NCBI GenBank assembly: GCA_045614835.1
Contig: JAZLDP010000004.1
Location: 1 to 48,139, forward strand
Source: Clostridia bacterium
GTDB lineage: Bacteria; Bacillota; Clostridia; Christensenellales; UBA1242
Reading direction: 5' to 3'
DNA length: 48,139 nucleotides
Shown here: positions 1 to 48,139 of the stretch, in pieces
Layout: each line of letters begins with the position of its first letter
How positions within the stretch are numbered: the first letter of the stretch is position 1
Notes under the pieces: model-generated
What the model was told of the DNA's origin: nothing
The model's input: the letters and a program-made list of their open reading frames with translations, nothing else
The model's database searches: none
Position numbers and translations under genes: made by a program

Positions 1-18
1 CCCCCATATCATATCAAA
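1..18. repeat. terminal identity (assembly overlap or edge of a terminal redundancy)
   Basis: nt 1-18 CCCCCATATCATATCAAA are identical to nt 48122-48139, which implies a closed unit of 48,121 bp. Confidence 0.95.
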
Positions 19-29
19 TCCCCCCTCCT
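16..29 (-). repeat. AAATCCCCCCTCCT box (partial S element)
   Basis: near-identical to 48023-48035 (AAATCCCCCTCCT); the minus strand reads AGGAGGGGGGATTT. Confidence 0.8.
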
Positions 30-60
30 TTATACCCCTAGTCACAGAAAGTCATTAACA

Positions 61-72
61 AAAAAGAAGGTA
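61..72 (+). repeat. 12-nt exact repeat AAAAAGAAGGTA, copy 2 of 3
   Basis: identical 12-mers at 48074-48085, 61-72 and 193-204, all in the same orientation. Confidence 0.9.
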
Positions 73-98
73 AGGTATTAATTTCTGAAAAAAGGGGT

Positions 99-124
99 CA
101 AATTTCGCCTGTAATCAATTTTTT
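99..124 (-). repeat. S element copy (dispersed ~30-nt element)
   Basis: plus strand CAAATTTCGCCTGTAATCAATTTT; the minus-strand reading resembles AAAACGATTACAGGGCAATTT seen at 12849-12881 and 45664-45691. Confidence 0.6.
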
Positions 125-159
125 TCAAAAAACCGAGAACTAATTAGGGTAAGGGGGTT

Positions 160-185
160 AAAACGATTGTGAGGGAAATTTGGGG
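160..185 (+). repeat. S element copy, inverted relative to the others
   Basis: AAAACGATTGTGAGGGAAATTTGGGG on the plus strand; can pair imperfectly with 99-124 and 48023-48044. Confidence 0.6.
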
Positions 186-192
186 TTCAAGA

Positions 193-204
193 AAAAAGAA
201 GGTA
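193..204 (+). repeat. 12-nt exact repeat AAAAAGAAGGTA, copy 3 of 3
   Basis: see 61-72. Confidence 0.9.
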
Positions 205-277
205 AATGTTGTGGTAATAAAAAAGACCCTTAACTAGAAAAAGTCAAGAGTCAATTTAATAGAAAAAAATTATGATA

Positions 278-335
278 GGAGAACCAGAGCAGGGAAAGAT
301 AAGGATTAAGATATAGGGGTTTGCAGAGGTTCTCC
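278..335. repeat. 8-bp perfect inverted repeat GGAGAACC / GGTTCTCC with a 42-nt spacer
   Basis: arms at 278-285 and 328-335; G+C-rich arms in an AT-rich genome. Confidence 0.7.
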
Positions 336-434
336 CGAAAAAAAGAATGTCACGAATAGAGAAAATGGGGGTATTTATATTTACGGAGTGAGTTTAAAAA
401 TATAAAAAAATTTCTTTGGCTATTCGCAGTTATA

Positions 435-464
435 ATTATACTACAATAAAAAATACAATGTCAA
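435..464 (-). promoter_or_regulatory. sigma70/sigmaA-type promoter (TTGACA-18-TATAAT) pointing into the gene-free region
   Basis: the minus strand reads TAA(stop of CDS 475..6918)-aaaaaatctc-TTGACA-ttgtattttttattgtag-TATAAT; -35 at 459-464, -10 at 435-440. Confidence 0.6.
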
Positions 465-474
465 GAGATTTTTT

Positions 475-3400
475 TTAGAAAAGAGATTCAAACAATTTTT
501 GCTTATTACTTTTAGACATTGGTAAGCTTTGAATATAAGCTTTAGCCTCAGACTTTTTCATACCTTTACAGTCAAAATAAGTGAAGAAAAAGTCATCATA
601 AGTTAAGGAAGAATTTCCTACTAAATTTGAAGCTTTTTCGAATAACTTAGTTGAGTGGAATTTAAGAGCAGTTTCCGCTCCAAAAGTAAGATATAGTCCG
701 TAGTAGTAATCATCATCGATAGAGTCTTCGGATAATTGAAGTTGGTTAAGATTACTTCCTAAAGCATCTACATTTTCATAAGCAGTTTTATACATATTAT
801 TTATTAATAATTGTATTGTTTTTAATTGTTGGTCTTTTTCGTTTTTAGAAAGTGAAGTGTCCTCCTCGATTTTTCTTTGTTCATCGTATAACTCAGATAT
901 TTTAGATTTAACTTTATTCATATATTTCACTTGAAGAGTAGCAACAGCATCTCCATCAGATTTTAAATATTGAAGCTTAGTTAATTTTTTACTAAAATCT
1001 TGATAATATTTAGTTTTATAAACTGGGTCAACGGTTAAATTAGATGAAACAAATGTTAAAGCATTAGTTTTACCATCTGAATTTGTTGCGGGGATAAGAA
1101 TATCTCCGATTACGCCTGAATATTGGTCAATAAGATAATCTATTTTTTTAGGAGAGTAATTAAATACCTTTCCCAAAGCTTTAGATATAGCTGAAGTAGA
1201 TTCATCATATCTGTCTGATGGTCTAATATTATCATATTTTGATGATTCTATTTGACCTCCATACCAAGTGGTATTAGTTTTTACATCATTTATTGGTGAT
1301 AATATAGTTCTAAAATCATTAACTGGTGATACAGCTTGAGAAACAGTTTCTCCATATCCTTCAAATGCTGTTTTATCGCCTTTTAACAAGTAATCAGCTG
1401 ATTTAGTTAAAGCACTTGATAATACAGTTATAACTCTTCCCTTAGGTATTTTAACGAATTTATCTCCAATTTTAATCAAATAGTTATTATCTCTATAATA
1501 ATCAGATAATCCTTGATATTCATCATCATCATAATAAACTATGTAATTAAATAACGAAGGAGTTAATCCTATTAATATAGCTCTAGCTAATAAAGATGCT
1601 AATTCTTTTAATGTTTTTCTAGAGAAAATAGTTCTGTATAATTTGACAAAACCTTGAACTTGGGCATTTAAGAAAGGCATTACAGTAGCATTTAAAGCTT
1701 TAGTAGCTTTTCCTGAACGACCAAAGTTAACAGTTATTTCTTGAGCATCATAAAAAGCTTCTTCATAAGATTTTCCATTTTCAAGAGATGAAATAAACTC
1801 AGCAATTCTTACAGATTGTTCAACAATCATATTAGCTCTAGCTATTTTATTTTTAACCTTTGATAATGCGTTTTTAGGATTTAATATATTAGGCTTTGAT
1901 AAAGGTTTATTAACGATAATTCCGTTATTAAAATCAAAGAAACTTGAATATAAACCGCCCATAGAACAATATCTTTGCCAAATTTCTCCATTTTTTAATA
2001 TTTCTTTAAAAGCTTTAGGCATATTTTTACTTAAAGATTTTATTCCGTTTTTAGAATACAATAACGCATCTTGAATATCTCTTGAAAAGTTTCGAATTAT
2101 GAAAAATGGGTTAAATTCAGTAGTAAATGCTTTAAATAATTTATTAGCTTTATTAATTGGCTTTAATATTAAATTATTTGAATAATCATTAACGCTTGAC
2201 AATGTGTTAAATCCTTCTAAAATTTCATTTGTTACTTCCATTGAAATTCGTTCTCCATTTTTATAGAAAGATACAACATTACCCTTTTCTCCTAAGTCTT
2301 CCTCAGTGTATTCATCAACAGTTTTTCTTATTTTAATTTGCTCTACGATTCTAACATCTTGATTTGAATCTTTATATTTAGAATTCATTTTTGCATCATA
2401 AATATCTTTAGCCATTTCATTTACTGCAATATTCTTATAAACACGCTTTAATTGGCTTGCAAATTGCTCGTGTAAAGGCTTTATTAATATATCACTACCT
2501 TTTGCTTTTTTAACTCCTGTAGAAACGTTTTTAGCACTACCAGCTACAGGTTTGCTTAATAATGTTGATTGGATTTCTCTTTCAGTAGGAACATAATGAG
2601 GATATATACTAGCCATTTCACGATATTGATTTACATCAATTAATCCTGCTTCTAATCTTAACCTGTTTAAAGCATCAGCAAATTGCCATACATCTTTAGC
2701 GTGTTCTTTAAATTCTGGATATTTTTTATCATATTCAGATATTATTTCTAAGCTATCTTTTGCAGTGACATCATTTCCAAATACAGGTTTCGGTTCTCTA
2801 AACACTTCTTTAAATTCATTAAATTGTTTTTCAGTCATAAAGCTTTTAAATTCTTCAATAGATAATGATTCTTGTTTAGAGTCGCTTATCTTTTTAATCA
2901 TTTTTGCTTTTTTATAATCGGTTAAAAAGTTTAATTTTTGAATATCATTAGCTGTAACTTTTTTGAATAAATTCATTCTATCTACATTATGGTTATGTAG
3001 TAAGTAATCATAGTATTCAGTTCTTTTTTGTTCAGTATCCATCCAATTAAAAATTTCATCGTAAGATTTTGATAAAACTTTATCGCCTTTTAAATTTCTT
3101 ATTCCGTTTTGTAAAGAATAATCAGCTCTATTTTTAAATCCTCTTAATAAATTAGCTTTAACTTCATAATTGTCTTTATTTTCAGTATATAACTTAATTA
3201 TGTTATTAACTCCAGCCATAGTATCGATTAAAGCAATTTTTGCTTGCTCAGTTCCCTTTTTAAAAGCATTGATTTTATTTTGATTTATTTGAGTAGTTAC
3301 CGTTTTTACTTTAGATAAAGTAGGACTTTTTACAGAATATCTTACATTTGATTTTTTGCTTTCAACAAACTTTAATAGCTTTTCTTCATTTTTTTTGTTT

Positions 3401-6400
3401 ATTGGAATTAATTGCTCTTTAAAAACAGGAACGTTTAACGATGTTGTTTTTGTGTTGTTAAATATTTGACCTTTTAATGTATTTGGAATTGTTTTTTCTG
3501 GATTGTATTTATCATAAGTTTCATAATAAGGGTCAATTAAAATTTGGACTTGAGTGTATCCCTCTTTCATTAAAGCATACATTCTATGTCTTCCTTCGTG
3601 TCCTTTTATTTTGCCTGATTGCATATCAATAACTAAATAAATAGAATCTCCTAATCGCATTGGCTTTGTTTTTAATTCTTCTAAATCTAATTTTCTTGTT
3701 TCATTTTTAAATTTTTCTTTATAAGAAGTAGGAACTGTTAATTCTAAAAATTCTTGTGGAGAAATGTAATAAGAAAAATATGTAGCGTAATCTTCATTAA
3801 ATTTTGTTGAACTTATATCTATAAATGATGACAATCTTTTTTCAGTAAAAGAAACTGTTTTTCCACTTTCTCTTAATTGTTTTAAATTATTATAACTGTT
3901 TTGATTTCTAGATAAAAATTCAGGACTTCTAAATCCTTTATCCTTATTTCTTTGATAAGAAGTTAAATTTTTATCTGATTTTTTCCTGTAATCTTCAATT
4001 ATTTTTTCCTCTATTTTAGCATCATTAATATTATTATAATTTAATTTTTCTATTACAAAATTTTCAAACTCTCTAAAACTATTTTCGTAAACTTTATCAT
4101 TATCAAATTTAACTAAATCTTTATAAGCTTGTTTAAAAGATTTTTCATCAATAATACTTTCTTTTAACATTTTTATTCCATATATTTCTTCATAATAATC
4201 AGTATTTTTATCTGAATCTTTTTTTATAGAGTATTTAGTTTTAAAAAAACTCATTTGATATTCTTTAGCTTCATCGTAACTATCTTTATCAAAAAATTTT
4301 GTTTCGACTTTTTTGTTTGTATTTACCATAAAAGCTACTTTAGGCATATTATGATTTTTAGCAATGTTATCGTGGTCATACTCCATATTATAATCCATTA
4401 ATGAAGCTGTTTTAAAATCAAAAATTAAATTATACATTTTTTGCAAATCTTGATTTACAGAAGCATAACAATCTAATGTTTTGGCTTTTTCTTTAACTAT
4501 TTGTGATATATTTGATAAAAATCCTCTTTTTCTACCACAATTAAAAACGCTTATTAAATCTCCATCATTAGTAATAGCAAAACCACTTAATCCATCATCG
4601 CTTAAATAACAAATTGAATCTTTATAATCATCGTGTAAATCTACTAATTCTCCATTTTCAGTATAATTTCTTGCTATTTCAAAAATATCGTGAAATAAAT
4701 CTCCATCAATATTTTCATATAAATTAAAATCTTTTAAATGTAATATCCTATTAGAGCTGGAGTTATAGCCTCTACTGTCCAACCTTCTTTTAAAAATTTC
4801 GGAAAGTCTTCGTTGTAATCTTTCATTATTCTTTGCGTAGATTCTTTGCTCACTACTTTTAGCAAATTCTTCTCTACTTTCTTCTTGAAGTCTTCTAAAT
4901 TCATTTTCTTCTCCTTTTAAACTTAATTTTTCTTTTTTGTTATTATCAGATTTAGCACTTTCGCTTTCTTTTAATAAACTTGTGAATATATTAAAACTTT
5001 CATTTATTGCTTTTTTGTATTCTTTTAATAACTTTTTATTACCTTTAAATTTGTCTAAATTCTCTTTTCTTTCTTTGAAAAAATCAACTAGCTTTTCTAA
5101 AGTATTTCTATTGTCTCCAACTAATTTTCTAGCTAAAGATTTATCTGAAAGCATATCTCCAAAAACATCAGCAAACATTTCTTGTTTAATATATTCATCT
5201 TGCTTTTCAACAGACATTTTCTTAAATGCATCTAATCCTTTTTCATTTGAGTTTAAATATAAATTCTTTTTAGCATCAAACTCTTTTTTAAACTCTTCAT
5301 TATTATTTTGGCTTTCAAAATAATTAGCAAAAACAAGTTCATATAATTTTTTTCCTTCAGCTGTATGAGTTAATTCGTGACCCGTTGTTTTAGCATATGC
5401 TTGCTTCCATAATTCTTCATTATTTAATGAATTACTTAAAGTTATAACATTACCTTTTACATATCCATTAACTGATTTTCTATTTGTGAAATTTAAACCA
5501 AAATTAGATGAGGTAATTTTATTTAAATTTCTAATCATTTCGCTAGCATAATCTTGCTTAGCCTTTGTTTCAGCATCAGCATTTAAATAACTTTTTTTGA
5601 ATGAGCCATCTTTGTTATATTTGTAATTTTGAGCAGTTCTATTAATATATTTTTTACGCTCTTCAACATCCATTGCTTTAACTTTTTCACTAATACTAGA
5701 CTCTAAATTGCTTAATCTACTAGATATTTTTTCTTTTTTTGATTCTTTAAGATTTTTATCTCTTATTTCGCTTTGTAATCTAGAAACTTCGGAAAGTTCA
5801 TTTTGTTCTAAAATTTCATTTATAGTTGTTCCTTTTTTAGATAATTCTTTTTCTATTTCAGAAGAAAATTCAGTTGTTTTAGAGTTTATTTCATTTGCTA
5901 ATTCATTAGCTTGTTCTAAATTGCCTTCTTCAACTTGTTTAATCATTTCATCTTGTAATTCAACTACATTTGAAGCTACTCGGCTTCCTTTAGATGTTAA
6001 AGCTACATTACCACCCATAATTACAGCACTACATAAAGCACCATTTAAACCAGCTTGTAAAACATTACCAACAAATTCATCGCTTTTATATTCTTCTAAT
6101 GCATCATCTTTATAAATAGATTTCATTAAAGGTTGTAATGATTCACTAACCATTTCTTCTACGCCTTCACCAGCCATATTTACTAATACTTTTGTAGCTG
6201 TACTTTTAGCCATTTTCATACTTAAATTAGGCATTAATTTAGTAATTTGTCCTTTTCCAAGACCACCTAATCCACCACTTAACATTTCAATAGCTGTTTC
6301 AACAGCTCCGTTAATAGTTCCGTATAATATTGCCTCATCTTTTGTTGCACCTTCTTGTAAAGCTTGTTCAGCACCACTTCCTCCAGCACTTAAACCAAAA

Positions 6401-6918
6401 GCAACAGTTCCAGCAGTTCCTCCAGTAGCAACATTCAATGCTATCGATGGTAGCATTTGACCAACGTTTACTAAAACATCGCTAACAATAGAATCTTCTG
6501 AATAAAAAGAATCTTTATGAGCAGATGTTTTAACATCTCCTAATAATTCTTTTGTCCAATCTTTTTCAACAAAATCTGTAATTGTATCTCCTTTGTCTAA
6601 TTTAGAAATTAATATACCACCAGCATCAATTATACCTTCAACTCCTTTTGAAGCACCGTATAACACATCAGCTCCAGCTGAAGCAACAGTTTTTATTATT
6701 TTTGTGAATACATCAGCATCTTCATCAATAATTTGACCTTCTTCATTTGTTATATCTGGTAAAATGTTTTCGTATTGCTGTTTTTGATTATATGTAGAAA
6801 TGGGGTTAGCTTGATTACTAACCCCTTTATTATCTAAAATAGTAGGTTCTTGTCTTTTAGATTGATATTTTTCTAACAAAGAATTGTCTTTTTTATATTT
6901 TTCTAAAATACTAGCCAT
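475..6918 (-). CDS. giant multidomain polyvalent virion protein (probable internal/ejected protein)
   Basis: 2147-aa uninterrupted ORF with an AGGAGG SD. Gly/Ala-rich hydrophobic tape-measure-like segments at aa ~70-310. Zincin motif HELTH at aa 514-518 (nt 5365-5379). GNAT-like block including GFAITNDGDLISVFN at aa ~725-865. ParB/Srx-like GHEGRHR at aa 1106-1112 (nt 3583-3603). About 950-aa C-terminal module of unknown fold. Last gene of the strand. Confidence 0.6.
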   Translation of the reverse strand: MASILEKYKKDNSLLEKYQSKRQEPTILDNKGVSNQANPISTYNQKQQYENILPDITNEEGQIIDEDADVFTKIIKTVASAGADVLYGASKGVEGIIDAGGILISKLDKGDTITDFVEKDWTKELLGDVKTSAHKDSFYSEDSIVSDVLVNVGQMLPSIALNVATGGTAGTVAFGLSAGGSGAEQALQEGATKDEAILYGTINGAVETAIEMLSGGLGGLGKGQITKLMPNLSMKMAKSTATKVLVNMAGEGVEEMVSESLQPLMKSIYKDDALEEYKSDEFVGNVLQAGLNGALCSAVIMGGNVALTSKGSRVASNVVELQDEMIKQVEEGNLEQANELANEINSKTTEFSSEIEKELSKKGTTINEILEQNELSEVSRLQSEIRDKNLKESKKEKISSRLSNLESSISEKVKAMDVEERKKYINRTAQNYKYNKDGSFKKSYLNADAETKAKQDYASEMIRNLNKITSSNFGLNFTNRKSVNGYVKGNVITLSNSLNNEELWKQAYAKTTGHELTHTAEGKKLYELVFANYFESQNNNEEFKKEFDAKKNLYLNSNEKGLDAFKKMSVEKQDEYIKQEMFADVFGDMLSDKSLARKLVGDNRNTLEKLVDFFKERKENLDKFKGNKKLLKEYKKAINESFNIFTSLLKESESAKSDNNKKEKLSLKGEENEFRRLQEESREEFAKSSEQRIYAKNNERLQRRLSEIFKRRLDSRGYNSSSNRILHLKDFNLYENIDGDLFHDIFEIARNYTENGELVDLHDDYKDSICYLSDDGLSGFAITNDGDLISVFNCGRKRGFLSNISQIVKEKAKTLDCYASVNQDLQKMYNLIFDFKTASLMDYNMEYDHDNIAKNHNMPKVAFMVNTNKKVETKFFDKDSYDEAKEYQMSFFKTKYSIKKDSDKNTDYYEEIYGIKMLKESIIDEKSFKQAYKDLVKFDNDKVYENSFREFENFVIEKLNYNNINDAKIEEKIIEDYRKKSDKNLTSYQRNKDKGFRSPEFLSRNQNSYNNLKQLRESGKTVSFTEKRLSSFIDISSTKFNEDYATYFSYYISPQEFLELTVPTSYKEKFKNETRKLDLEELKTKPMRLGDSIYLVIDMQSGKIKGHEGRHRMYALMKEGYTQVQILIDPYYETYDKYNPEKTIPNTLKGQIFNNTKTTSLNVPVFKEQLIPINKKNEEKLLKFVESKKSNVRYSVKSPTLSKVKTVTTQINQNKINAFKKGTEQAKIALIDTMAGVNNIIKLYTENKDNYEVKANLLRGFKNRADYSLQNGIRNLKGDKVLSKSYDEIFNWMDTEQKRTEYYDYLLHNHNVDRMNLFKKVTANDIQKLNFLTDYKKAKMIKKISDSKQESLSIEEFKSFMTEKQFNEFKEVFREPKPVFGNDVTAKDSLEIISEYDKKYPEFKEHAKDVWQFADALNRLRLEAGLIDVNQYREMASIYPHYVPTEREIQSTLLSKPVAGSAKNVSTGVKKAKGSDILIKPLHEQFASQLKRVYKNIAVNEMAKDIYDAKMNSKYKDSNQDVRIVEQIKIRKTVDEYTEEDLGEKGNVVSFYKNGERISMEVTNEILEGFNTLSSVNDYSNNLILKPINKANKLFKAFTTEFNPFFIIRNFSRDIQDALLYSKNGIKSLSKNMPKAFKEILKNGEIWQRYCSMGGLYSSFFDFNNGIIVNKPLSKPNILNPKNALSKVKNKIARANMIVEQSVRIAEFISSLENGKSYEEAFYDAQEITVNFGRSGKATKALNATVMPFLNAQVQGFVKLYRTIFSRKTLKELASLLARAILIGLTPSLFNYIVYYDDDEYQGLSDYYRDNNYLIKIGDKFVKIPKGRVITVLSSALTKSADYLLKGDKTAFEGYGETVSQAVSPVNDFRTILSPINDVKTNTTWYGGQIESSKYDNIRPSDRYDESTSAISKALGKVFNYSPKKIDYLIDQYSGVIGDILIPATNSDGKTNALTFVSSNLTVDPVYKTKYYQDFSKKLTKLQYLKSDGDAVATLQVKYMNKVKSKISELYDEQRKIEEDTSLSKNEKDQQLKTIQLLINNMYKTAYENVDALGSNLNQLQLSEDSIDDDYYYGLYLTFGAETALKFHSTKLFEKASNLVGNSSLTYDDFFFTYFDCKGMKKSEAKAYIQSLPMSKSNKQKLFESLF

Positions 6919-10179: not shown

Positions 10180-10209
10180 AAAAAAGCACTAGAAAATATT
10201 TCCTAGTGC
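10180..10209 (-). terminator. rho-independent terminator
   Basis: the minus strand reads GCACTAG-gaaatatttt-CTAGTGC followed by TTTTTT; sits just after the stop of CDS 10222..10584. Confidence 0.65.
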
Positions 10210-10221
10210 CAAGCTAAAAAA

Positions 10222-13492: not shown

Positions 13493-13522
13493 AAAAAAAA
13501 TGAACCGTTATTTAAACGGCTC
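13493..13522 (-). terminator. rho-independent terminator overlapping the stop of CDS 13508..14716
   Basis: the minus strand reads GAGCCGTT-taaat-AACGGTTC (8 bp including one G-U) followed by ATTTTTTTT. Confidence 0.55.
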
Positions 13523-14716
13523 ATCTTTTAATACTTGTTTAATTTTTTGTTTACTTCGATAAATAGATTGATTTGCTGTTTGATAATCGATATATTCAAT
13601 ATCAGCTATCTCTTGTAAAGTTTTACGCTCAATATATTTTAAAACCATTCTATTAGTGGCTTGCTCAGTTAAGCCAGCTATATCACATAGTTTTATTAAA
13701 TCTTCTTTAAGCATACCTTTTCTTAGTGTGATTCCATCATAATTAGTATAGTTCATATAACAATACATTACATACATCATATAAGCAACTAAGCAACCTA
13801 TAAGAATATTACATAATACTGAAATGTATAAAGGTAACGATAATCTTGTAGCAGTAACAAAAATTAAAACAGCTAATGTGGTACATACTAACACGCTATC
13901 TGAATGATAACTTTTACCGTAAACCTGTCTCATAAATACAAACGAAATAAAAATCAGCAAATACTCTAAAATAACATTATTTACAAAATAGCATATCGTA
14001 CCTACTAAGAATAACTGAGTTATAGATAGCATTACAATAAATATTTTGTAACCAAGTTCAACCTCTACTTTTTGAACATTTTCTTGATTTTGTTGTACAT
14101 TTTCTTTAAAGCTGTTTCGCTTGGAAAGAAAAACCAACTTGGTCTTCCATCGTTCATACAATGACACTCCTTTCTTTAATTCTCTTAACAATGTTAATGT
14201 TAATAATATGTAATAATCTATTTGTAAAATAGATTCTACTCTAAAATCTACGTTTCTAATATCAGTGTTTATATTTTTATAAAACATAGTTAATAACTGA
14301 TATATAGAAACAATAATAGATACTACCACACAATCAAACAAAATTTCTTTTAAAGTTAATTTTGAAAAGCATCGTATAATGATTACATAAATTGAAAAAT
14401 CAACAATTAAGAAATAAGGTGATTTTAAATTAAAAGTTATTAAATAATCAAATATATTTAATAATATTATTACCAATAACTCTTTTAGTTTAACAAATCT
14501 TTTTAATATAATCAATGACATAAATATGCCATTTAAAATAAATAAAGATAAATTAATAACTACACGAAATGTATAATTTAAACTTACCACTTTATCGGGT
14601 ATTTCAAACTCTTTAAAACCTAGAAACTTTAATAAAGAACAAAGTATAACGGTGAACCAAAAGAGCTGAATAAGTCTGTCGTAAACAAACTCTTTATTGA
14701 TTTTCTTTATATTCAC
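13508..14716 (-). CDS. polytopic membrane protein (about 10 TM) fused to a C-terminal sigma-70 region-4-type HTH
   Basis: 402-aa ORF, GTG start with an AGAGGAAG SD. Hydrophobic helices run through aa ~15-320. The C-terminus LTEQATNRMVLKYIERKTLQEIADIEYIDYQTANQSIYRSKQKIKQVL fits the sigma r4 / ECF-LuxR HTH pattern. Confidence 0.55.
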   Translation of the reverse strand: MNIKKINKEFVYDRLIQLFWFTVILCSLLKFLGFKEFEIPDKVVSLNYTFRVVINLSLFILNGIFMSLIILKRFVKLKELLVIILLNIFDYLITFNLKSPYFLIVDFSIYVIIIRCFSKLTLKEILFDCVVVSIIVSIYQLLTMFYKNINTDIRNVDFRVESILQIDYYILLTLTLLRELKKGVSLYERWKTKLVFLSKRNSFKENVQQNQENVQKVEVELGYKIFIVMLSITQLFLVGTICYFVNNVILEYLLIFISFVFMRQVYGKSYHSDSVLVCTTLAVLIFVTATRLSLPLYISVLCNILIGCLVAYMMYVMYCYMNYTNYDGITLRKGMLKEDLIKLCDIAGLTEQATNRMVLKYIERKTLQEIADIEYIDYQTANQSIYRSKQKIKQVLKDEPFK

Positions 14717-24873: not shown

Positions 24874-24912
24874 CTAAAAAAAGTGGAAAGTGGATAAAAC
24901 CACCCTCCACTT
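24874..24912 (-). terminator. strong rho-independent terminator after the capsid genes
   Basis: the minus strand reads AAGTGGAGGGTGG-ttttat-CCACTTTCCACTT (13 bp including two G-U) followed by TTTTTTT. Confidence 0.75.
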
Positions 24913-29201: not shown

Positions 29202-29367
29202 AATCTACCTCCCTGTCCATTAGATATAAAGCTTTTTCTTGTTCTTGTTTTGATTTTAAATCAAGTTCTTCTTTTAATTCTAACTCTAACTCTTTTATTT
29301 TATTCTCTAACTCTTGTTTACTTTTAATAAGAGATTCGTATTTCTTTTTACTAATAATTTTTACCAT
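29194..29367 (-). CDS. small coiled-coil protein (57 aa), missed by the >=60-aa ORF track
   Basis: its ATG overlaps the TerL stop (GAATGGTAA) and its stop overlaps the portal start (TATGTCTAA); sequence MVKIISKKKYESLIKSKQELENKIKELELELKEELDLKSKQEQEKALYLMDREVDYV. Confidence 0.5.
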   Translation of the reverse strand: MVKIISKKKYESLIKSKQELENKIKELELELKEELDLKSKQEQEKALYLMDREVDYV

Positions 29368-31025
29368 TCTAAAAACCCACTTTCTTCATCGTTATTATTA
29401 CTTATTTTGAAAAAGTTGTTAAAAGCTTCTTCTACTTCATTTGTTTTATTATGTTTAACCAAATCAACCGTAAAATCTTGTTGGTCTCGAATATAGTATG
29501 TAATAGCCATTCCCATTACCAAGTCATCGTGATAACCATTCATAGCTTCTATTTTACCGCCATTAGATTGATTTCTAACAATCGTTAACATTTCATTTAA
29601 TGTATCTAAATCATTAAAGCAAGTTACATCTTCACGAACAATTCTAATTAAATCAGCTAAGATTATAGGTCTAGTTTTAGTAGTAGTCCTAAATCCATAA
29701 CTTTTTAATATTCTATTGGTAAATGTATCTTCTTGTATTCTTATGTATAAATTTGGATATTCTAAACGCTGTAGCTCTTTAATTGGAAATGTAGAAAAGT
29801 TTACTTCAAGACCTATTAGAGCTGTATTGTAATACATTCCTAAACAATACATTTGCTGTGCGTATAAATCTTCATCAGTAAGCATTTTTAGAGTTGCTAC
29901 TTGATTTCCAGTTGAATTATCTATCATTTGACCAGTAAAAAAGTCGCTTCCATCTCCAGCTGTATCTCCGCCTAAAACATACGGATGACCTTCTTTAGGT
30001 TTAATAAATAATTTTATACATCCTTTATTATCGTTAATCCATCTAATATTTGATATTGTTAATCCATCATAATCGTAATCAAAATAACCTTGAGTGTATT
30101 TTGTTTCTTTTATATCGTTAATTCTTTTTATGATTTTTTCTTTATCAAAAACGCTTGTTCCTGTTGAGATAAACGCATTTTCAGGGCAATCAGGATATTC
30201 TTGGTTGAAATATTCTTCATCTCCATCACACTTATTCGCAATAGTCCATCTTCTCCAAGCTAATTGTTCTAAAGTTAAATTATACCTTTGCTTAATTTCT
30301 TTTTCTTTATCAGTTAATGTAAATCCCCAGTAAGGCATTTGATATTCTTTCATTTCATACCAAGCAAAAAATACTGGAACATAGTCACTTTTACCAGCAA
30401 CTGCATTGTCCCACATTTCTTTAAACTCTTCATAACCATTTGCTGTTGATTCAATAATTACTATAGATTTAGCATTGTCTGGAACTGATTGTAACAAACC
30501 TCTTAAAGTATTTCTTTTGTTTCCTTCCCAAAAGGCGTATTCAGAAATATGTAAAACATTGTAAGTATCTGAACGACCTACACCACTAGAACCAGCTGTC
30601 ATACATTTTATTTTGCTTCCTAAACCTTGTTTGTCTTTAGTATCAAATATTAATTCTTTTGAGTTACTTGCTAACAATACTGGCTTAGGGTCTGGCATAT
30701 TATAATAAAAGTTTTTTGACATATTAAACAAGTTGTTTGTGGCTGTATCACTATGGGTAATAATACCAGATTTAATATTAAATCCAGTTACAGTTGTTTT
30801 AAAAATTAATCCTTCTGTATAAGTTGAAAACCCCATTTGTCGAGCTTTTAAAATTATAATTCTTACAGGTTTATTTTCAGCTTGCAATTTTTCTACAATA
30901 GAATTAAGTTTTAATTGAGGCTCATTCATTTTAAAATCTACTAAATCATTGTTTTTAGTAATTATTTTTAAAAAGTTTTCAAAGAAATACTTATTGTCTA
31001 TTTTAAATGTTTTATTATTGTTCAC
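29361..31025 (-). CDS. terL: terminase large subunit
   Basis: ILKARQMGFSTYTEG ATPase-type box, VLHISEYAFW Walker-B-like and GGDTAGDGSD nuclease-domain acidic box. Start set at GTG 31025 (AGAGG 6 nt upstream) because the track TTG 31031 abuts the SD. Confidence 0.85.
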   Translation of the reverse strand: MNNNKTFKIDNKYFFENFLKIITKNNDLVDFKMNEPQLKLNSIVEKLQAENKPVRIIILKARQMGFSTYTEGLIFKTTVTGFNIKSGIITHSDTATNNLFNMSKNFYYNMPDPKPVLLASNSKELIFDTKDKQGLGSKIKCMTAGSSGVGRSDTYNVLHISEYAFWEGNKRNTLRGLLQSVPDNAKSIVIIESTANGYEEFKEMWDNAVAGKSDYVPVFFAWYEMKEYQMPYWGFTLTDKEKEIKQRYNLTLEQLAWRRWTIANKCDGDEEYFNQEYPDCPENAFISTGTSVFDKEKIIKRINDIKETKYTQGYFDYDYDGLTISNIRWINDNKGCIKLFIKPKEGHPYVLGGDTAGDGSDFFTGQMIDNSTGNQVATLKMLTDEDLYAQQMYCLGMYYNTALIGLEVNFSTFPIKELQRLEYPNLYIRIQEDTFTNRILKSYGFRTTTKTRPIILADLIRIVREDVTCFNDLDTLNEMLTIVRNQSNGGKIEAMNGYHDDLVMGMAITYYIRDQQDFTVDLVKHNKTNEVEEAFNNFFKISNNNDEESGFLEW

Positions 31026-31467
31026 ATTCAACCTCTATAGCTGTAGTTTGCCCAGTCATTTTAGCTATTATATCTTCCCAACTACCTACATTTACATTAG
31101 TAGTTTGTTCTTTCTTTTGAGAAGGTTCATAACCAGCATATTTAGCCATACTCTCTACTATTTTTAATTTATCTGTTGGATTTGTTTCTTTATCTAATAA
31201 AACTCTCATAAGCTCCATATACATCGCTTCAATACCCTTTACTTTTTGAAAAGATTTTACACCGCCCTTTTCATTGCAAGAAACATCGTAAACTAAATAA
31301 TCTTTGTTAAACATTTTTTCAATAGTATTTTTAACAATATTATGATTCTCTCTTGTTAGTTTAGCTTTTTCAATATTAGCTTTTTTTTGTTCTGGAGTTT
31401 GATTTGCTCTGTATTCTTCTAAAGCTTTTTGCCCTCTTTTTGTTCTTTCTTCTAACGAAACTGGCAT
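31015..31467 (-). CDS. terminase small subunit candidate
   Basis: 150-aa basic/helical ORF with an AGGAGG SD; first gene after the 31.5-kb promoter; overlaps TerL. Confidence 0.4.
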   Translation of the reverse strand: MPVSLEERTKRGQKALEEYRANQTPEQKKANIEKAKLTRENHNIVKNTIEKMFNKDYLVYDVSCNEKGGVKSFQKVKGIEAMYMELMRVLLDKETNPTDKLKIVESMAKYAGYEPSQKKEQTTNVNVGSWEDIIAKMTGQTTAIEVECEQ

Positions 31468-31547: not shown

Positions 31548-31943
31548 TTATACTTCATTCACATCAATTTCTCCGTTAACATTTACATATTGACCTTGTT
31601 TATTTTGATAATAAACACTTTTAGCAGAAATATAAACAAAATCTCTTAGTTTTCTGGTTGAATAATCTGTGTATCTTTTATTAATTAAAGAACCACAAAC
31701 TATTATTAGCGTTCCTCTTTTTAAAGTTTTAGCCATATAGTTAGCTAATTTATTATAAGCTTTTATTCTAAACATCATACAGTTTTTTACAAAAACTATT
31801 GGTCTATCTTTTGAAGGTTTTGGCTGTATAGGTGGAGTATATAAAGTAAAATATACATAATCGCATTTGTTTTCTTCATCATATTTTAAATATAAATCTG
31901 TAGCACAATAACCTTGAACTTCTACCTGATTAAAATATCTCAT
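31548..31943 (-). CDS. second SSB-like OB-fold protein, no acidic tail
   Basis: The pattern NQVEVQGY...FRIKAYNKLANYMAKTLKRGTLIIVCGSLINKRYTD fits an SSB OB-fold. Start set at ATG 31943, 4 nt after the upstream stop; the track ORF starts at TTG 31976. Confidence 0.45.
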   Translation of the reverse strand: MRYFNQVEVQGYCATDLYLKYDEENKCDYVYFTLYTPPIQPKPSKDRPIVFVKNCMMFRIKAYNKLANYMAKTLKRGTLIIVCGSLINKRYTDYSTRKLRDFVYISAKSVYYQNKQGQYVNVNGEIDVNEV

Positions 31944-31947
31944 ATAT

Positions 31948-32211
31948 TTACAGCATCCTTTCTTTAGTCCTTTCAATTTTTTCTTGAATTTTTAAGTTTA
32001 AGTCATAATTGCTAATTTTAAATAAGTATTGCATTTGACAAAGCATAATATAAACATCAGCTAATTCTTCGGTAATGTTTTCTATATTAGTTTTGTCCCT
32101 TAAATGCTTACATAATTCCTTTTGCAATTCGCTTAATTCTTCAATAGCAACTATAACTTGCTTATCACCATATTTTTCAATCAACAATTCAAATATTTCA
32201 TTATTGCTCAT
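31948..32211 (-). CDS. MazG-like nucleotide pyrophosphohydrolase (small all-alpha type)
   Basis: 87 aa; EELSELQKEL and EELADVYIML match the paired EExxE / ExxD metal-binding helices. Confidence 0.6.
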   Translation of the reverse strand: MSNNEIFELLIEKYGDKQVIVAIEELSELQKELCKHLRDKTNIENITEELADVYIMLCQMQYLFKISNYDLNLKIQEKIERTKERML

Positions 32212-40803: not shown

Positions 40804-41235
40804 TTAAAATGGAAAATCATCATTTTTTATATCAAAAGGAGAATCATTCGCATCAAATTGTCTTACAACTTTGTCTTCTTCTATTGTTCTTCCACCCATA
40901 AAATCTGATGGAGTTTCTTCGATTAAATTAGTAGAGCCAAACGTTTCGCACTTTTCAACCAAAACAAATAAATTATTTTTTTTCGTTCCGTTAGATGATG
41001 TATAGTTTTCTTGGTCTAAATGACCGCAAATCATAATTTTATCTCCTTTTTTAAGATAAGGATAAAATAGTTTTTCAGCTAAACTACCAAAAACTTTAAA
41101 AGGAATAAAAATAGTTTTATTTTTTGCTACAAGAGGATTACAAGCAATTACATTATTAACATAACTTATTTTCCCATCGTTAGAAACCAGCTTAACATCG
41201 TAAACTATTCTTCCAGTAAGCACAACGTTTGTCAT
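40804..41235 (-). CDS. ssb: single-stranded DNA-binding protein
   Basis: 143 aa; N-terminal MTNVVLTGRIV OB-fold start; C-terminal acidic tip DIKNDDFPF. Confidence 0.75.
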   Translation of the reverse strand: MTNVVLTGRIVYDVKLVSNDGKISYVNNVIACNPLVAKNKTIFIPFKVFGSLAEKLFYPYLKKGDKIMICGHLDQENYTSSNGTKKNNLFVLVEKCETFGSTNLIEETPSDFMGGRTIEEDKVVRQFDANDSPFDIKNDDFPF

Positions 41236-44988: not shown

Positions 44989-45408
44989 CTAATACCTTTC
45001 TTCTTGTTTTACTTTTCTATAACTCATATGATTTATAAAAGATGTTTTTCGAAGTGTTTGATTTTCAAAAAACTCTAAAACCCAAGCAGAATCATATAAT
45101 TTATTAATATCTTCATCACTTAAACTTTCTAAATATTCACTATCAGTATATTTAGTAATAAACAAATTACCATATAACATAGGTTCGTTGTAATAATCAA
45201 TCGCACTGATTCGCGGATTCTCTTTTAATAAAGCCTCATCATCACAAACAATAGTGTATAATTCGTTTGCAATGTATCGATTAACGATATCTATATATTC
45301 AACATTCAATAATTTATAATATTCTTCCAATTTTTGAGGTATTTCAACCACCTCAACTTTGCCATTTTCAACATCAATTAATAACCCTTTAACCATTCTT
45401 TTTGCCAT
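44989..45408 (-). CDS. DUF3846-like protein
   Basis: 139 aa; VKGLLIDVENGKVEVVEIPQKLEEYYKLLNVEYIDIV...CDDEALLKENP...LYGNLFI resembles the DUF3846 pattern. Confidence 0.45.
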   Translation of the reverse strand: MAKRMVKGLLIDVENGKVEVVEIPQKLEEYYKLLNVEYIDIVNRYIANELYTIVCDDEALLKENPRISAIDYYNEPMLYGNLFITKYTDSEYLESLSDEDINKLYDSAWVLEFFENQTLRKTSFINHMSYRKVKQEERY

Positions 45409-45808: not shown

Positions 45809-46357
45809 TTATTCTTCATCGTATGGCACATTGCATTTAATATCAGTTAAAACATACTTCCAAGATGTTCCATAGTGAGTCACGCCCCAAATATACATAT
45901 CAAGTTCTTCATTATAGAAAACAATTTCATTGATTTCTTTTAAAATCTCCGCTCCGTTGGCTGATACAATATAATATTGATATATATCTTGGTTATATGA
46001 ATTTTCCGCTTCTTCTTCAAGCTCATTTATTTGTTCTTCAATATCATATATTTTTTGTTGCAATTCTTCAATTTTTTCTTCAATTCCTTCTTCAATAAAA
46101 ACATCTAATTCTTCGCTTAATTCTTCAATTTCATCTTTTAATTCTTCGATAGTATCCGCATTGTCAATGAATCCGCTTTCTTGCTCCCAATACCCTATAT
46201 CATAAGTTTTTTTCATTATATCATTGTTTAACACTGCATCAAAAGCCTTTGCAAGTGTGGCATAATCAACATATCCCTTTTCTTGTCCGTATTCGCTAAT
46301 CTCATTTCCGTAAAAATATTTCCCGTGTACTTTGTAAACTTCTTTTTTAATAGTCAT
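45809..46357 (-). CDS. hypothetical early protein with an extremely acidic coiled-coil centre
   Basis: 182 aa with an AAGGAGCG SD; DTIEELKDEIEELSEELDVFIEEGIEEKIEELQQKIYDIEEQINELEEEAE. Confidence 0.8.
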   Translation of the reverse strand: MTIKKEVYKVHGKYFYGNEISEYGQEKGYVDYATLAKAFDAVLNNDIMKKTYDIGYWEQESGFIDNADTIEELKDEIEELSEELDVFIEEGIEEKIEELQQKIYDIEEQINELEEEAENSYNQDIYQYYIVSANGAEILKEINEIVFYNEELDMYIWGVTHYGTSWKYVLTDIKCNVPYDEE

Positions 46358-46366: not shown

Positions 46367-46473
46367 CGCTCCTTAATATATTATATTTTTTTCTCTGCTC
46401 TGCATTTGTGCGGACTTGCAACCGCTTCAGTTTTGAAGTTGCATTAGAGAGGGGATTTTTTCCCCTTTTTTTC
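46367..46473 (+). ncRNA. candidate ~105-nt plus-strand antisense sRNA
   Basis: bounded by the candidate promoter and a plus-strand-only intrinsic terminator; contains hairpin TGCAAC-CGC-TTCA-gttt-TGAA-G-TTGCA; complementary to the SD and 5' UTR of CDS 45809..46357. Confidence 0.3.
46450..46473 (+). terminator. intrinsic terminator that is functional-looking only on the plus strand
   Basis: AGGGGA-ttttt-TCCCCT followed by a T7 run on the plus strand; on the minus strand the hairpin is preceded by A7 but followed by CTCTAATGC. Confidence 0.5.
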
Positions 46474-46959: not shown

Positions 46960-47211
46960 TTATTCTTCATCAAATAATTCTTCGTGATATTCTTCGACCA
47001 TTTGCATTAACTCAACTTCTGCATTTTTTGAGTAATCTCTTAATAGATAAATTGCTTCTTGTAAAAGAGCTTTTATTTCTTCTTGTCTTAATTGGTAAAC
47101 TTGCCCCGCATCAAATAATGCAATACTTAAAGATGGATAAGTTGCTTCGCCTCTCATTTTTTCAGCTCTTGCTTTTTCTTGTCTTGCTGTTTGAAATAAT
47201 TCTTTTAACAT
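46960..47211 (-). CDS. hypothetical early protein (first gene of the strand)
   Basis: 83-aa helical ORF with an AAAGGGG SD. Confidence 0.8.
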   Translation of the reverse strand: MLKELFQTARQEKARAEKMRGEATYPSLSIALFDAGQVYQLRQEEIKALLQEAIYLLRDYSKNAEVELMQMVEEYHEELFDEE

Positions 47212-47256
47212 ATTTTTTAACCCCTTTGTTTTTCTTTCTACCCCTTAGGCACTTTC

Positions 47257-47286
47257 ATTATATCAGTTATATGCTATCATATACAA
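47257..47286 (-). promoter_or_regulatory. early sigma70-type promoter (TTGTAT-18-TATAAT)
   Basis: -35 at 47281-47286 and -10 at 47257-47262, with the -10 ending 45 nt upstream of ATG 47211; the spacer contains TATATG-ATAG-CATATA. Confidence 0.5.
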
Positions 47287-47333
47287 TACTTTTTTTAAAA
47301 ATATTTCAAAAATATTTAACTTTTTTCTTATTT

Positions 47334-47346
47334 TGACATATTCAAC
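47334..47346 (+). repeat. M motif copy (TGACATATTCAAC)
   Basis: 12 of 13 identical to 47740-47752 and 47817-47829. Confidence 0.7.
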
Positions 47347-47366
47347 TCACTAAAAATCACTAAAAA
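47347..47366. repeat. tandem 10-nt repeat TCACTAAAAA x2
   Basis: exact copies at 47347-47356 and 47357-47366. Confidence 0.9.
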
Positions 47367-47460
47367 ATGCTCCTTTTTTACTATATTATTTCCTACCTAA
47401 AATTGTCTATTTAAAGGTAAAATCTTAGTATTTATTATGTTAATCATTTAACTATTGTTT

Positions 47461-47479
47461 TTTATACTTTTTTATACTT
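47461..47479. repeat. tandem TTTATACTT x2, period 10
   Basis: 47461-47469 and 47471-47479. Confidence 0.85.
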
Positions 47480-47483
47480 AATC

Positions 47484-47519
47484 ATAACACTATATTTATT
47501 ATTAATCTTTTAGTGTTAT
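47484..47519. repeat. 9-bp perfect inverted repeat ATAACACTA / TAGTGTTAT
   Basis: arms at 47484-47492 and 47511-47519. Confidence 0.85.
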
Positions 47520-47530
47520 TATTAATCTTT
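47496..47530. repeat. 15-nt direct repeat TTATTATTAATCTTT x2, period 20
   Basis: 47496-47510 and 47516-47530. Both contain the 8-mer ATTAATCT, which recurs at 47672-47679 and 47702-47709. Confidence 0.9.
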
Positions 47531-47715
47531 ATACTATGATTATTTATAAATATAGTACTATACTTTAATATATTTTTATATTTAATTGTTAGAAAAATAC
47601 TAAATTATAATTTATGTATATACTTAATTTAATCTAGATTTAAATAGTATTATACTTAAATATAATATAGTATTAATCTAATATAGTATACTATTATTAT
47701 GATTAATCTAGTATA

Positions 47716-47725
47716 TGTGTGTGTG
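47716..47725. repeat. (TG)5 microsatellite at the AT-rich / GC-richer boundary
   Basis: TGTGTGTGTG. Confidence 0.9.
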
Positions 47726-47739
47726 ATTCGTTGTTATTG

Positions 47740-47784
47740 TGTCATATTCAACCATTAAGCACCTAGCACAAGCCTAATATGACA
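47740..47784. repeat. M-motif inverted pair (TGTCATATT ... AATATGACA)
   Basis: 9-bp perfect arms at 47740-47748 and 47776-47784, with a 27-nt spacer. Confidence 0.85.
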
Positions 47785-47816
47785 TAAAAGCCCTAAAGCC
47801 CTTAATCGTTTAGCCT

Positions 47817-47904
47817 TGTCATATTCAACGCTACTACAACGATATCAAGTCGAAAGTGGCAAACCCCTTAACGCCTCTTGCTTGGTCGTTGGTTCAATAT
47901 GGCA
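47817..47904. repeat. M-motif inverted pair (TGTCATATTCAAC ... GTTCAATATGGCA)
   Basis: 47817-47829 versus 47892-47904; 11 of 13 complementary. Confidence 0.7.
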
Positions 47905-47941
47905 TTAATACCCATTGACTAGCCAAAAGCCGACCACAAGC
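47880..47941. other. long imperfect hairpin (about 21 bp in four helical segments)
   Basis: GCTTGGTCG pairs with CGACCACAAGC (2-nt bulge), TTGGTT with AGCCAA, CAAT with ATTG, and GG with CC. Confidence 0.5.
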
Positions 47942-48022
47942 CCAATTTAAGCCCTTAAATAACCATCTGAAATCACGTATTCAAAGGTAAAGTCTTGGAA
48001 TACATCGTTTTGACTACCCACG

Positions 48023-48044
48023 AAATCCCCCTCCTATGCGTTTT
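48023..48044 (-). repeat. S element copy
   Basis: plus strand AAATCCCCCTCCTATGCGTTTT; the minus strand reads AAAACGCATAGGAGGGGGATTT; 16 of 22 complementary to 160-181. Confidence 0.6.
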
Positions 48045-48073
48045 CGCGATAAGATTGGAAAGGGTTTTGAGGG

Positions 48074-48085
48074 AAAAAGAAGGTA
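48074..48085 (+). repeat. 12-nt exact repeat AAAAAGAAGGTA, copy 1 of 3
   Basis: see 61-72. Confidence 0.9.
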
Positions 48086-48092
48086 TTGCCTA

Positions 48093-48126
48093 CCCCCTAG
48101 CCCCCCGATAGCGAACGCACACCCCC
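48093..48126. other. cluster of C5-C6 tracts (G tracts on the minus strand) continuing into nt 20-38
   Basis: C5 at 48093-97, C6 at 48101-06, C5 at 48122-26 (= nt 1-5), C6 at 20-25 and C4 at 35-38. Confidence 0.8.
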
Positions 48127-48139
48127 ATATCATATCAAA
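48122..48139. repeat. terminal identity, partner of nt 1-18
   Basis: identical 18-mer. Confidence 0.95.

Follow-up and report, generated by a model that had tools for sequence, protein, structure and literature searches.

We analysed a 48,139-nucleotide (nt) stretch of DNA assigned to a Clostridia bacterium (contig JAZLDP010000004.1; hereafter the window), which encodes a tailed phage, and in it the single large gene-free tract that follows the last phage gene and runs across the junction of the contig ends. As judged by comparison with related phages, a consensus promoter at the start of this tract very probably makes a non-coding, structured minus-strand RNA. Its product is most likely a short, terminated small RNA of about 210 nt and not a giant structured RNA, as had been proposed in an initial annotation of this DNA. 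The reading we favour, with middling confidence, is that the tract consists of an unclassified phage small-RNA gene together with conserved cis elements. What argues for a small-RNA gene is a conserved promoter of its own, a terminator kept by compensating changes at a conserved distance from that promoter, the non-coding nature of the stretch and an excess of structure that is confined to one strand.

A conserved consensus promoter precedes the only large gene-free tract

The phage encoded in the window has a portal protein, a large terminase subunit and a major head protein. Its genome has a G+C content of 27.3%, and all sizeable open reading frames (ORFs) lie on the minus strand. The two ends of the window are identical over 18 nt (CCCCCATATCATATCAAA; positions 1-18 equal 48122-48139), and the sequence closes to a circle of 48,121 nt. 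The last gene, 475..6918, has its stop codon at 477-475 and encodes a polyvalent protein of 2147 amino acids (aa) with an LPD38 domain. The gene-free tract that follows it (474..1 plus 48121..47212) measures 1,384 nt and is the sole large one in the genome; other sense-strand gaps measure at most 159 nt, with a median of 18 nt. Its longest ORF has 50 aa, in agreement with the ORF-free stretch of about 1.38 kb previously noted after the last gene. No ORF is shared between the tract and its relatives: the 50-aa ORF, which spans the junction, and all others vary in frame and sequence among them, and a coding reading was therefore rejected.

The comparison set consists of the window and three related phages, L001, L002 and L007, whose plus strand corresponds to the minus strand of the window and which were reached through homologues of the last two genes. 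The samples that contain L001, L002 and L007 have the run accessions SRR29277958, SRR29277937 and ERR9559716. The proteins of L001 and L002 are about 92-94% identical to those of the window. L007 is more distant, with 53% identity in a 385-aa protein and 66% in the C-terminal 768 aa of the polyvalent protein. All three cross the window junction with a single copy of the 18-mer, which validates the circular join. Searches of GenBank phage DNA with 1-6000, 1-480 and 47200-48139 gave zero matches, and IMG/VR protein scans for close relatives, made with the C-terminus of the last gene and with one early gene, found nothing. Exact-pattern scans for the conserved blocks described below in viral contigs, JGI metagenome contigs and GTDB genome contigs returned 0 matches and no clue to the host.

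The tract opens with the following promoter.

435..464, minus strand: sigma-70-type promoter, with the -35 hexamer TTGACA at 464-459, an 18-nt spacer and the -10 hexamer TATAAT at 440-435, a match at 12 of 12 positions

Its -35 hexamer lies 10 nt past the stop codon of the 475..6918 gene, and the start of transcription is predicted near 428. Perfect TTGACA-N16-18-TATAAT promoters occur three times in the window (464-435, 31532-31503 and 44714-44686), all of them gene-sense, compared with 0.17 expected. Both hexamers are identical in L001, L002 and L007, and the L007 promoter has an added TG extension; its spacer agrees with that of the window at only about 8 of 18 positions. Invariant hexamers around a diverged spacer are the signature of selection on promoter function. 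Thus the promoter noted earlier by eye is present in full, is conserved in three relatives and, by comparative criteria, is functional. As for the other two perfect promoters (both minus strand), that at 31532-31503 directly precedes the presumed genes for the small (31015-31467) and large terminase subunits, and that at 44714-44686 lies in the early region. The phage appears to rely on consensus host promoters for early and late units alike.

The base composition of the tract fits the initial annotation in part. Positions 1-474 have a raised G+C content (32.3%), and on the plus strand of 61-474 G indeed far exceeds C (21.7% vs 8.9%). The G+C peak, however, lies outside this segment, at 47701-48121 (42%, with 51-52% near the junction), where the plus strand has more C than G. 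The skew flips near position 50, and the claimed G excess does not extend across the junction into the richest part.

The promoter most likely yields a short, terminated small RNA

Four features on the minus strand describe the predicted transcript.

219..428, minus strand: candidate small RNA, about 210 nt long, which would begin at the predicted start site and run through the U-tract of the terminator; supported by its folding and by the lack of a conserved ORF
352..427, minus strand: 5' domain, with a closing stem (427-420/359-352) and an AU hairpin (406-398/382-374) whose loop CUCACUCC lies at 392-385
278..336, minus strand: hairpin B, with a 9-bp GC-rich stem and a 41-nt C-rich loop; -16.5 kcal/mol, z -4.65
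219..252, minus strand: intrinsic terminator, a stem-loop (252-225) followed by U6 (224-219)

In the sense orientation the candidate small RNA has a minimum free energy of -43.1 kcal/mol, compared with -23.2 +/- 3.2 kcal/mol for dinucleotide shuffles (z -6.3); the antisense strand reaches z -1.2. The equivalent unit of L007 gives z -4.3 in sense and -1.1 in antisense, and the sense strand of L001 gives z -6.6. When 120-nt windows were moved over the whole tract, only the sense strand from 434 to 215 lay consistently below -2. Small insertions and deletions of 1-5 nt are frequent among the relatives in this stretch, and the small-RNA body is 57% identical to that of L007.

The terminator lies about 205 nt downstream of the promoter and has counterparts at the equivalent place in all three relatives, with hairpin energies of -14.6 kcal/mol in the window, -12.7 in L001 and L002 and -16.4 in L007. 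Between the window and L007, six of the nine positions of its stem have changed, three on both sides and three on one side, with pairing intact throughout; this compensation was read by hand from the folds, and an alignment with MAFFT did not put the stems in register. A few strong intrinsic terminator hairpins are also found in other sense-strand intergenic gaps, at 24881-24912, 13495-13529 and 10185-10210 (minus strand).

The 8-bp GC-rich inverted repeat described earlier (GGAGAACC at 278-285, GGTTCTCC at 328-335) is present as reported and corresponds to hairpin B. In L001 and L002 the stems of this hairpin are identical and its loop is variable; in L007 it is not recognisable. The loop motif UCACUCC of the 5' domain is found at equal distance from the promoter in L007, where the 5' end of the RNA is also sequestered, by a different partner sequence. 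The predicted RNA is laid out as a 5' end held in a stem, the AU hairpin, the GC-clamped hairpin B, a U-rich unpaired linker (CAUAAUUUUUUUC) and the terminator. Both clades share the sequestered 5' end, the fixed distance between UCACUCC and the start, the terminator and a portion of the linker.

Two aspects of this arrangement bear on the length of the product. Since the promoter lies upstream, and not downstream, of the terminator of the late operon, a short product is favoured over a promoter for the early genes. Moreover, the order promoter, 210 nt, terminator is kept in both clades, which argues that the short RNA is the product. Thus, of the minus-strand non-coding RNA previously ascribed to this promoter, the promoter itself and, very probably, a structured, non-coding transcript hold up; the great length does not, with a terminator about 205 nt in.

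Beyond the conserved terminator, the remaining 1.17 kb or so shows no excess of folding in either orientation. A z of -1.8 was obtained for the 690 nt between the predicted start and the point where conservation ceases, and sense sliding windows past the terminator range from about +1.8, for the window that spans the terminator, down to -1.8. RNAalifold, applied to the four sequences past the terminator, yields -30 kcal/mol over 440 columns with a weak covariation term of -2.5. The relatives keep only short blocks and repeats there, with weak covariation at most, and there may be a genome terminus inside the tract; this is the pattern that the initial annotation had itself named as speaking against a large RNA.

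Searches against Rfam point in the same direction. Rfam 15 found nothing in the whole window at the gathering score, and at E<=10 there was no match to GOLLD, ROOL or OLE in window positions 1-600 and 47100-48139 or in the corresponding gaps of L002 and L007. At the same threshold 47100-48139 gave nothing for any family, and its homologues at the L002 and L007 junctions gave chance-level matches only (E 3-6). The packaging RNA (pRNA) of phi29 was considered and rejected: there is no Rfam match at E<=10, and the genome is that of a 48-kb tailed phage with a packaging enzyme of the large-terminase type.

Conserved blocks lie beyond the terminator

The part of the tract that follows the terminator contains repeats and blocks on the minus strand that are shared with the relatives.

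193..203, minus strand: direct repeat ACCTTCTTTTT, copy 1, conserved in all four phages
61..71, minus strand: direct repeat ACCTTCTTTTT, copy 2, conserved in all four phages
48074..48084, minus strand: direct repeat ACCTTCTTTTT, copy 3, conserved in all four phages
143..181, minus strand: 39-nt conserved block AAATTTCCCTCACAATCGTTTTAACCCCCTTACCCTAAT, nearly identical in L007
98..116, minus strand: conserved block GATTACAGGCGAAATTTGA, matching L007 at 18 of 19 positions
1..20, continuing into 48120-48121, minus strand: conserved block GATTTGATATGATATGGGGGTG, containing the 18-nt end duplication
48063-48045, 48012-47997 and 47994-47976, minus strand: conserved blocks CCTTTCCAATCTTATCGCG, CAAAACGATGTATTCC and GACTTTACCTTTGAATACG, respectively, with which conservation in L007 stops

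About 430 nt, from 214 to approximately 47950, align to L007 at 66-75% identity, which is at least as high as in adjacent protein-coding DNA and above the value for the small-RNA body; the blocks reach about 75%, between phages whose proteins share 53-66%. ACCTTCTTTTT occurs three times in the genome, compared with 0.19 expected, always in the tract and always on the minus strand. Its start-to-start spacing in the four phages is 132-139 nt and then 108-111 nt. This tract-limited family substantiates one of the three repeat families claimed earlier; the other two, in 1-474, were noticed by eye only. The core blocks are unique in the genome, with no paralogous copies in AT-rich modules or elsewhere, and are thus not general operator sites. 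A weak terminator-like hairpin at repeat copy 3 (48098-48078) was discarded, as it is not conserved in L007.

At the junction, a block of the form ATTTGATAT-N5-TGGGGGTG is kept in all four phages, at a distance of 51-54 nt from repeat copy 2, which precedes it, and of 57 nt from copy 3, which follows it. The 18-nt overlap of the window ends coincides almost exactly with the conserved block there, between runs of C5 and C6. An overlap of 18 nt is unlike what common k-mer assemblers leave on a circle, and a filled-in 5'-protruding cohesive end would give one. It may mark a physical DNA end or cut site, or could reflect an assembly break at the flanking C5 and C6 runs. The large terminase subunit, encoded at 29361-31031 and about 17 kb from the tract on the circular map, has T4-like terminases as its closest relatives. 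Pfam assigned it to no family and revealed no HNH nuclease nearby, and thus gave no indication of the packaging type.

An exchangeable module separates the conserved core from the early genes

Past approximately 47950 the tract is modular: the window and L002 carry one version and L001 and L007 another, and the boundary of the exchange is the end of the conserved core. The early-side module is mosaic: L001 has late genes about 92% identical to those of the window and the module of the distant L007 (L001 18110-18870 and L007 13560-14186, compared with 47212-47900 of the window). Two features stand out in the version of the window.

47829-47817, 47752-47740 and 47346-47334, minus strand: direct copies of GTTGAATATGACA, with an inverted partial copy at 47892-47904; together they span the module-specific part 47334..47904
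47257..47286, minus strand: probable proximal early promoter TTGTAT-18-TATAAT ahead of the first gene (ATG 47211), read from the sequence and conserved in L002

Each direct copy of GTTGAATATGACA overlaps a mini-ORF of 3-6 codons (ATG..TAA), and the set may be the operators of a module-specific early regulator. Genome-wide, 21 sites like GTTGAATATGACA were counted, compared with 2.5 expected; this excess was set aside as mostly codon usage (read in frame, the sites encode V-E-N/Y), and meaning was attached to the tract copies alone. The segment 47347-47715, which separates the conserved core from the first gene, has a G+C content of 10-16% and tandem repeats with periods of 10, 21 and 24; possible roles are in DNA unwinding or as an array of early promoters. 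The -35 hexamer of the proximal promoter fell below the threshold of the promoter scan. L001 and L007 have a strong promoter of their own beside the early genes, TTGACT-17-TATAAT. Farther into the early region, at 46446-46471, a GGGGA6TCCCC hairpin lies between the second and third early genes.

Proposed mode of action

In the mechanism that we propose, the consensus host-type promoter at 464-435 would start a transcript near 428, which would fold into the 5' stem-loop domain and a second hairpin and stop at the terminator (252-225 plus U6). The product would be about 210 nt long and rich in pyrimidines. Since the late operon would end at this terminator too, the arrangement would be that of a small RNA made at the 3' end from a promoter of its own. 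The RNA would probably act in trans by base pairing, with its C/U-rich unpaired parts binding the ribosome-binding regions of phage or host mRNAs; the candidate pairing segments are the loop CUCACUCC, the C-runs and the U-rich linker CAUAAUUUUUUUC. Beyond the terminator, the roughly 430 nt of conserved blocks would serve as cis elements, most likely as DNA sites recognised by proteins at or near a genome end or packaging cut, and would be followed by the exchangeable AT-rich early-control module. The analysis shows the promoter, the terminator, the strand-specific structure, the lack of coding capacity and the conservation; from these we infer that the RNA is expressed and acts in trans and that the blocks work at the level of DNA.

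Many small RNAs of low-G+C bacteria mask ribosome-binding sites with segments that resemble the anti-Shine-Dalgarno sequence. The unpaired pyrimidine-rich parts of the candidate resemble the anti-Shine-Dalgarno tail of 16S rRNA, as does the loop motif UCACUCC when set beside UCACCUCC, a likeness noticed post hoc. Among possible targets, a pairing of -19.3 kcal/mol is predicted between the loop of the window and the start region of gene 44989..45408; 1% of shuffles reach this value. The linker matches the start region of gene 45809..46357 perfectly over 14 nt, in AT-rich sequence and with an E value of about 0.09.

Several observations weigh against a small-RNA gene accompanied by DNA-level cis elements. 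The target predictions are not reproducible: neither L001 nor L002 has an equivalent best target for the loop, and the linker match is not the best one in these two phages either. The internal fold differs between the clade of the window and L007, in hairpin B as well as in the partner of the 5' stem, and only the overall architecture is conserved. Covariation is low-powered, as there are only four sequences, three of them about 90% identical. The blocks past the terminator are better conserved than the small-RNA body, and the main function of the tract may therefore lie in these blocks, with the promoter serving them via read-through. Finally, a T4-like terminase that is encoded about 17 kb away does not favour a classical cos site in the tract.

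Alternative explanations

The main rival to cis elements at the DNA level is an attenuated early leader. The promoter at 464-435 would then be the main early promoter, the structured 5' RNA and the terminator would act as a regulated (antiterminated) or leaky stop, and read-through on a circular or concatemeric genome would carry a leader of about 1.2 kb, blocks included, into the first early gene. This has a modest chance of being correct. The promoter does face the early genes with nothing coding in between and is far stronger than the proximal TTGTAT-18-TATAAT, the blocks past the terminator are highly conserved, and the repeats are all in sense orientation. There is also a precedent in the put element of phage HK022, where a structured RNA close behind a strong promoter modifies RNA polymerase. 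Against it, a canonical terminator, conserved by compensation, stands between the promoter and the early genes and would have to be read through. The alternative named in the initial annotation, a strong early promoter with a long leader that contains the genome terminus, may hold as well and would likewise depend on read-through; the sole hint of a genome end lies inside the tract, downstream of the promoter, whereas a T7-style arrangement would have one just upstream of it. No sequence that competes with the 5' arm of the terminator was seen on reading the small-RNA sequence, and the leader part is without excess structure. Moreover, L001 and L007 have their own strong promoter beside the early genes. 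The core stays constant while the early module downstream of it is swapped, and it is thus not tied to particular early genes.

The tract might also be essentially a DNA element, that is, a genome end, a packaging site or a replication start, with the blocks and the three ACCTTCTTTTT boxes as binding sites, for example for a small terminase subunit flanking a cut at GATTTGATAT..GGGGG. The promoter would merely transcribe across or towards this site, and the short RNA would have no function. We regard this as possible, if clearly a minority view. It would account for the shared 18-nt ends, which fall on a block conserved in four phages and midway between two repeat copies, and for blocks that are unique in the genome, lack an RNA-structure signal and are followed by an extremely AT-rich repeat region. 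The pac site of SPP1 has terminase boxes on both sides of the cut, and in T7 a promoter after the last gene reads across the concatemer junction. Against it, three other assemblies run through the site, and the terminase is T4-like and encoded 17 kb away. The first 210 nt also have features that belong to RNA, namely folding specific to one strand and a terminator kept by compensation, and a DNA site leaves these unexplained.

A broader proposal, which we consider rather improbable, treats the conserved core of about 640 nt as one new phage non-coding module made up of the small RNA, the pyrimidine-rich blocks, in which UACCUUCUUUUU occurs three times (193-203, 61-71 and 48074-48084), and the G-run segment, in the slot that lysogeny genes occupy in temperate relatives. 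The module would present anti-Shine-Dalgarno mimics, partly in read-through RNA, that soak up or mask ribosome-binding sites, or would form an RNA-DNA hybrid that primes replication at the AT-rich region. UACCUUCUUUUU matches the 3' tail of 16S rRNA, CACCUCCUUUCU, at 9 of 12 positions with all mismatches being C to U, a comparison that was made post hoc.

It is very unlikely that the tract is the decayed remnant of a lysogeny module, with an accidental promoter and accidental hairpins. Distant homologues of the 2147-aa protein (L003-L006) lack the tract and have an integrase or other genes in its place; in L003 and L005, an integrase and a repressor do lie directly after, or close downstream of, the polyvalent-protein gene. 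The tract, however, has no similarity to those integrases, repressors or flanking DNA, it is conserved at least as well as adjacent coding DNA, and its promoter hexamers and terminator pairing are under selection. The integrases near the end of the polyvalent-protein gene are found at 11355-12575 of L003 and 9506-10639 of L005, with a repressor present as well in L005; the clade of the window has no integrase, and there is no integrase remnant in the tract.

Hardly credible, finally, is a very large structured RNA of the GOLLD, ROOL or OLE kind over most of the 1.38 kb: the size of the tract, its raised G+C content in an AT-rich phage, the strong promoter and the strong conservation fit it, but there is no Rfam match to these families at the gathering score in the window or at E<=10 in the segments searched, the terminator intervenes about 205 nt in, the 690-nt span and the alignment fold show little structure, and no tRNA genes lie nearby (ARAGORN found zero tRNA or tmRNA genes in the window), as opposed to the tRNA islands near which GOLLD and ROOL are often found (PMC12286853).

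Other features of the phage and its relatives

The family of polyvalent proteins to which the product of the last gene belongs has been described (PMC5512222). Among the close relatives, that is, in the window, L001, L002 and L007, this protein varies between 2138 and 2866 aa and in its domain content, and the C-terminal 768 aa are its conserved part. An ART-PolyVal (ADP-ribosyltransferase) domain is present in relatives and was not detected in the copy of the window. A homologue search with the C-terminal 764 aa returned only relatives of at most 44% identity, with different C-termini. Two genes encode proteins of the SSB family, at 31548-31976, just upstream of the late promoter, and at 40804-41235, in the replication module. 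A 177-aa ORF at 32540-33073 matches ThyX in its C-terminal part only.

Discussion

Of the known small RNAs, the candidate resembles RsaE/RoxS (RF01820) in the succession of a hairpin, an unpaired pyrimidine-rich linker and a terminator, and the C-rich motifs in the clade of the window are of the type of the anti-Shine-Dalgarno seeds of Firmicutes. Hairpin B and the terminator give a sub-threshold match to this family. Membership was rejected, however: of the 79 bits that the gathering score demands, the window reaches 28.8 and L002 32.6, L007 yields no match, the linker CCUAUCAUAAUUUUUUUCUAUUAAAUUG contains neither a C-run nor CCCC, and L007 has CUCC/UCC in place of the C-runs. Small RNAs of the DapZ type arise at the 3' end of enterobacterial operons from an internal promoter, share the operon terminator and depend on Hfq. 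The unit of the window is similar in that its promoter lies at the very end of the upstream coding sequence, its terminator would be shared with the operon and its proposed seeds are unpaired.

At the level of genome organisation, T7 has strong host promoters at its left end, and its phiOR promoter reads across the concatemer junction after the last gene. The window likewise has a strong promoter after the last gene that points across a non-coding, repeat-bearing region towards the early genes; it differs from T7 in the canonical terminator between the promoter and the rest, in its terminase and in its gene content. The pac site of SPP1 and the cosB sites of lambda adjoin the terminase genes. 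As in these sites, spaced copies of a short box surround a unique centre, in which the contig ends of the window fall; the candidate site of the window is about 17 kb from the terminase genes.

Virulent phages make many small non-coding RNAs, including species of about 210 nt and about 120 nt in the 3' untranslated region (UTR) of an upstream gene in phage PAK_P3 (PMC10914365). The unit of the window is similar to ncRNA1 and ncRNA2 of PAK_P3 and to the 5'UTR RNAs of phiKZ in being a short (about 90-210 nt), structured, non-coding stretch; those RNAs are abundant, often bounded by terminators and conserved at the level of the genus (PMC10914365). ncRNA1 and ncRNA2 were found by transcriptomics, have no start site of their own and are processed from the 3'UTR (PMC10914365), whereas the unit of the window is predicted and has its own consensus promoter. 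GOLLD and ROOL often reside near tRNA islands in phages and prophages, a setting that is typical and not strictly defining (PMC12286853). The tract shares with them that it is phage-borne, non-coding and above the genome average in G+C (PMC12286853); it differs in having no model match, no extended structure, no tRNA neighbourhood and a terminator about 205 nt in.

A false lead has thus been removed, as the tract is not a new giant RNA like GOLLD or ROOL. If expressed, the candidate would give an uncultivated phage lineage of gut type and low G+C content a clean small-RNA gene that belongs to no known class, and would offer a tractable case for regulatory RNAs in virulent phages of Firmicutes-like hosts, of which few examples are characterised. 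The blocks beyond it surpass the neighbouring proteins in conservation and have no second copy in the genome; they therefore mark an essential cis function that gene-based annotation misses altogether, perhaps that of a genome end, of a packaging site or of a start of replication.

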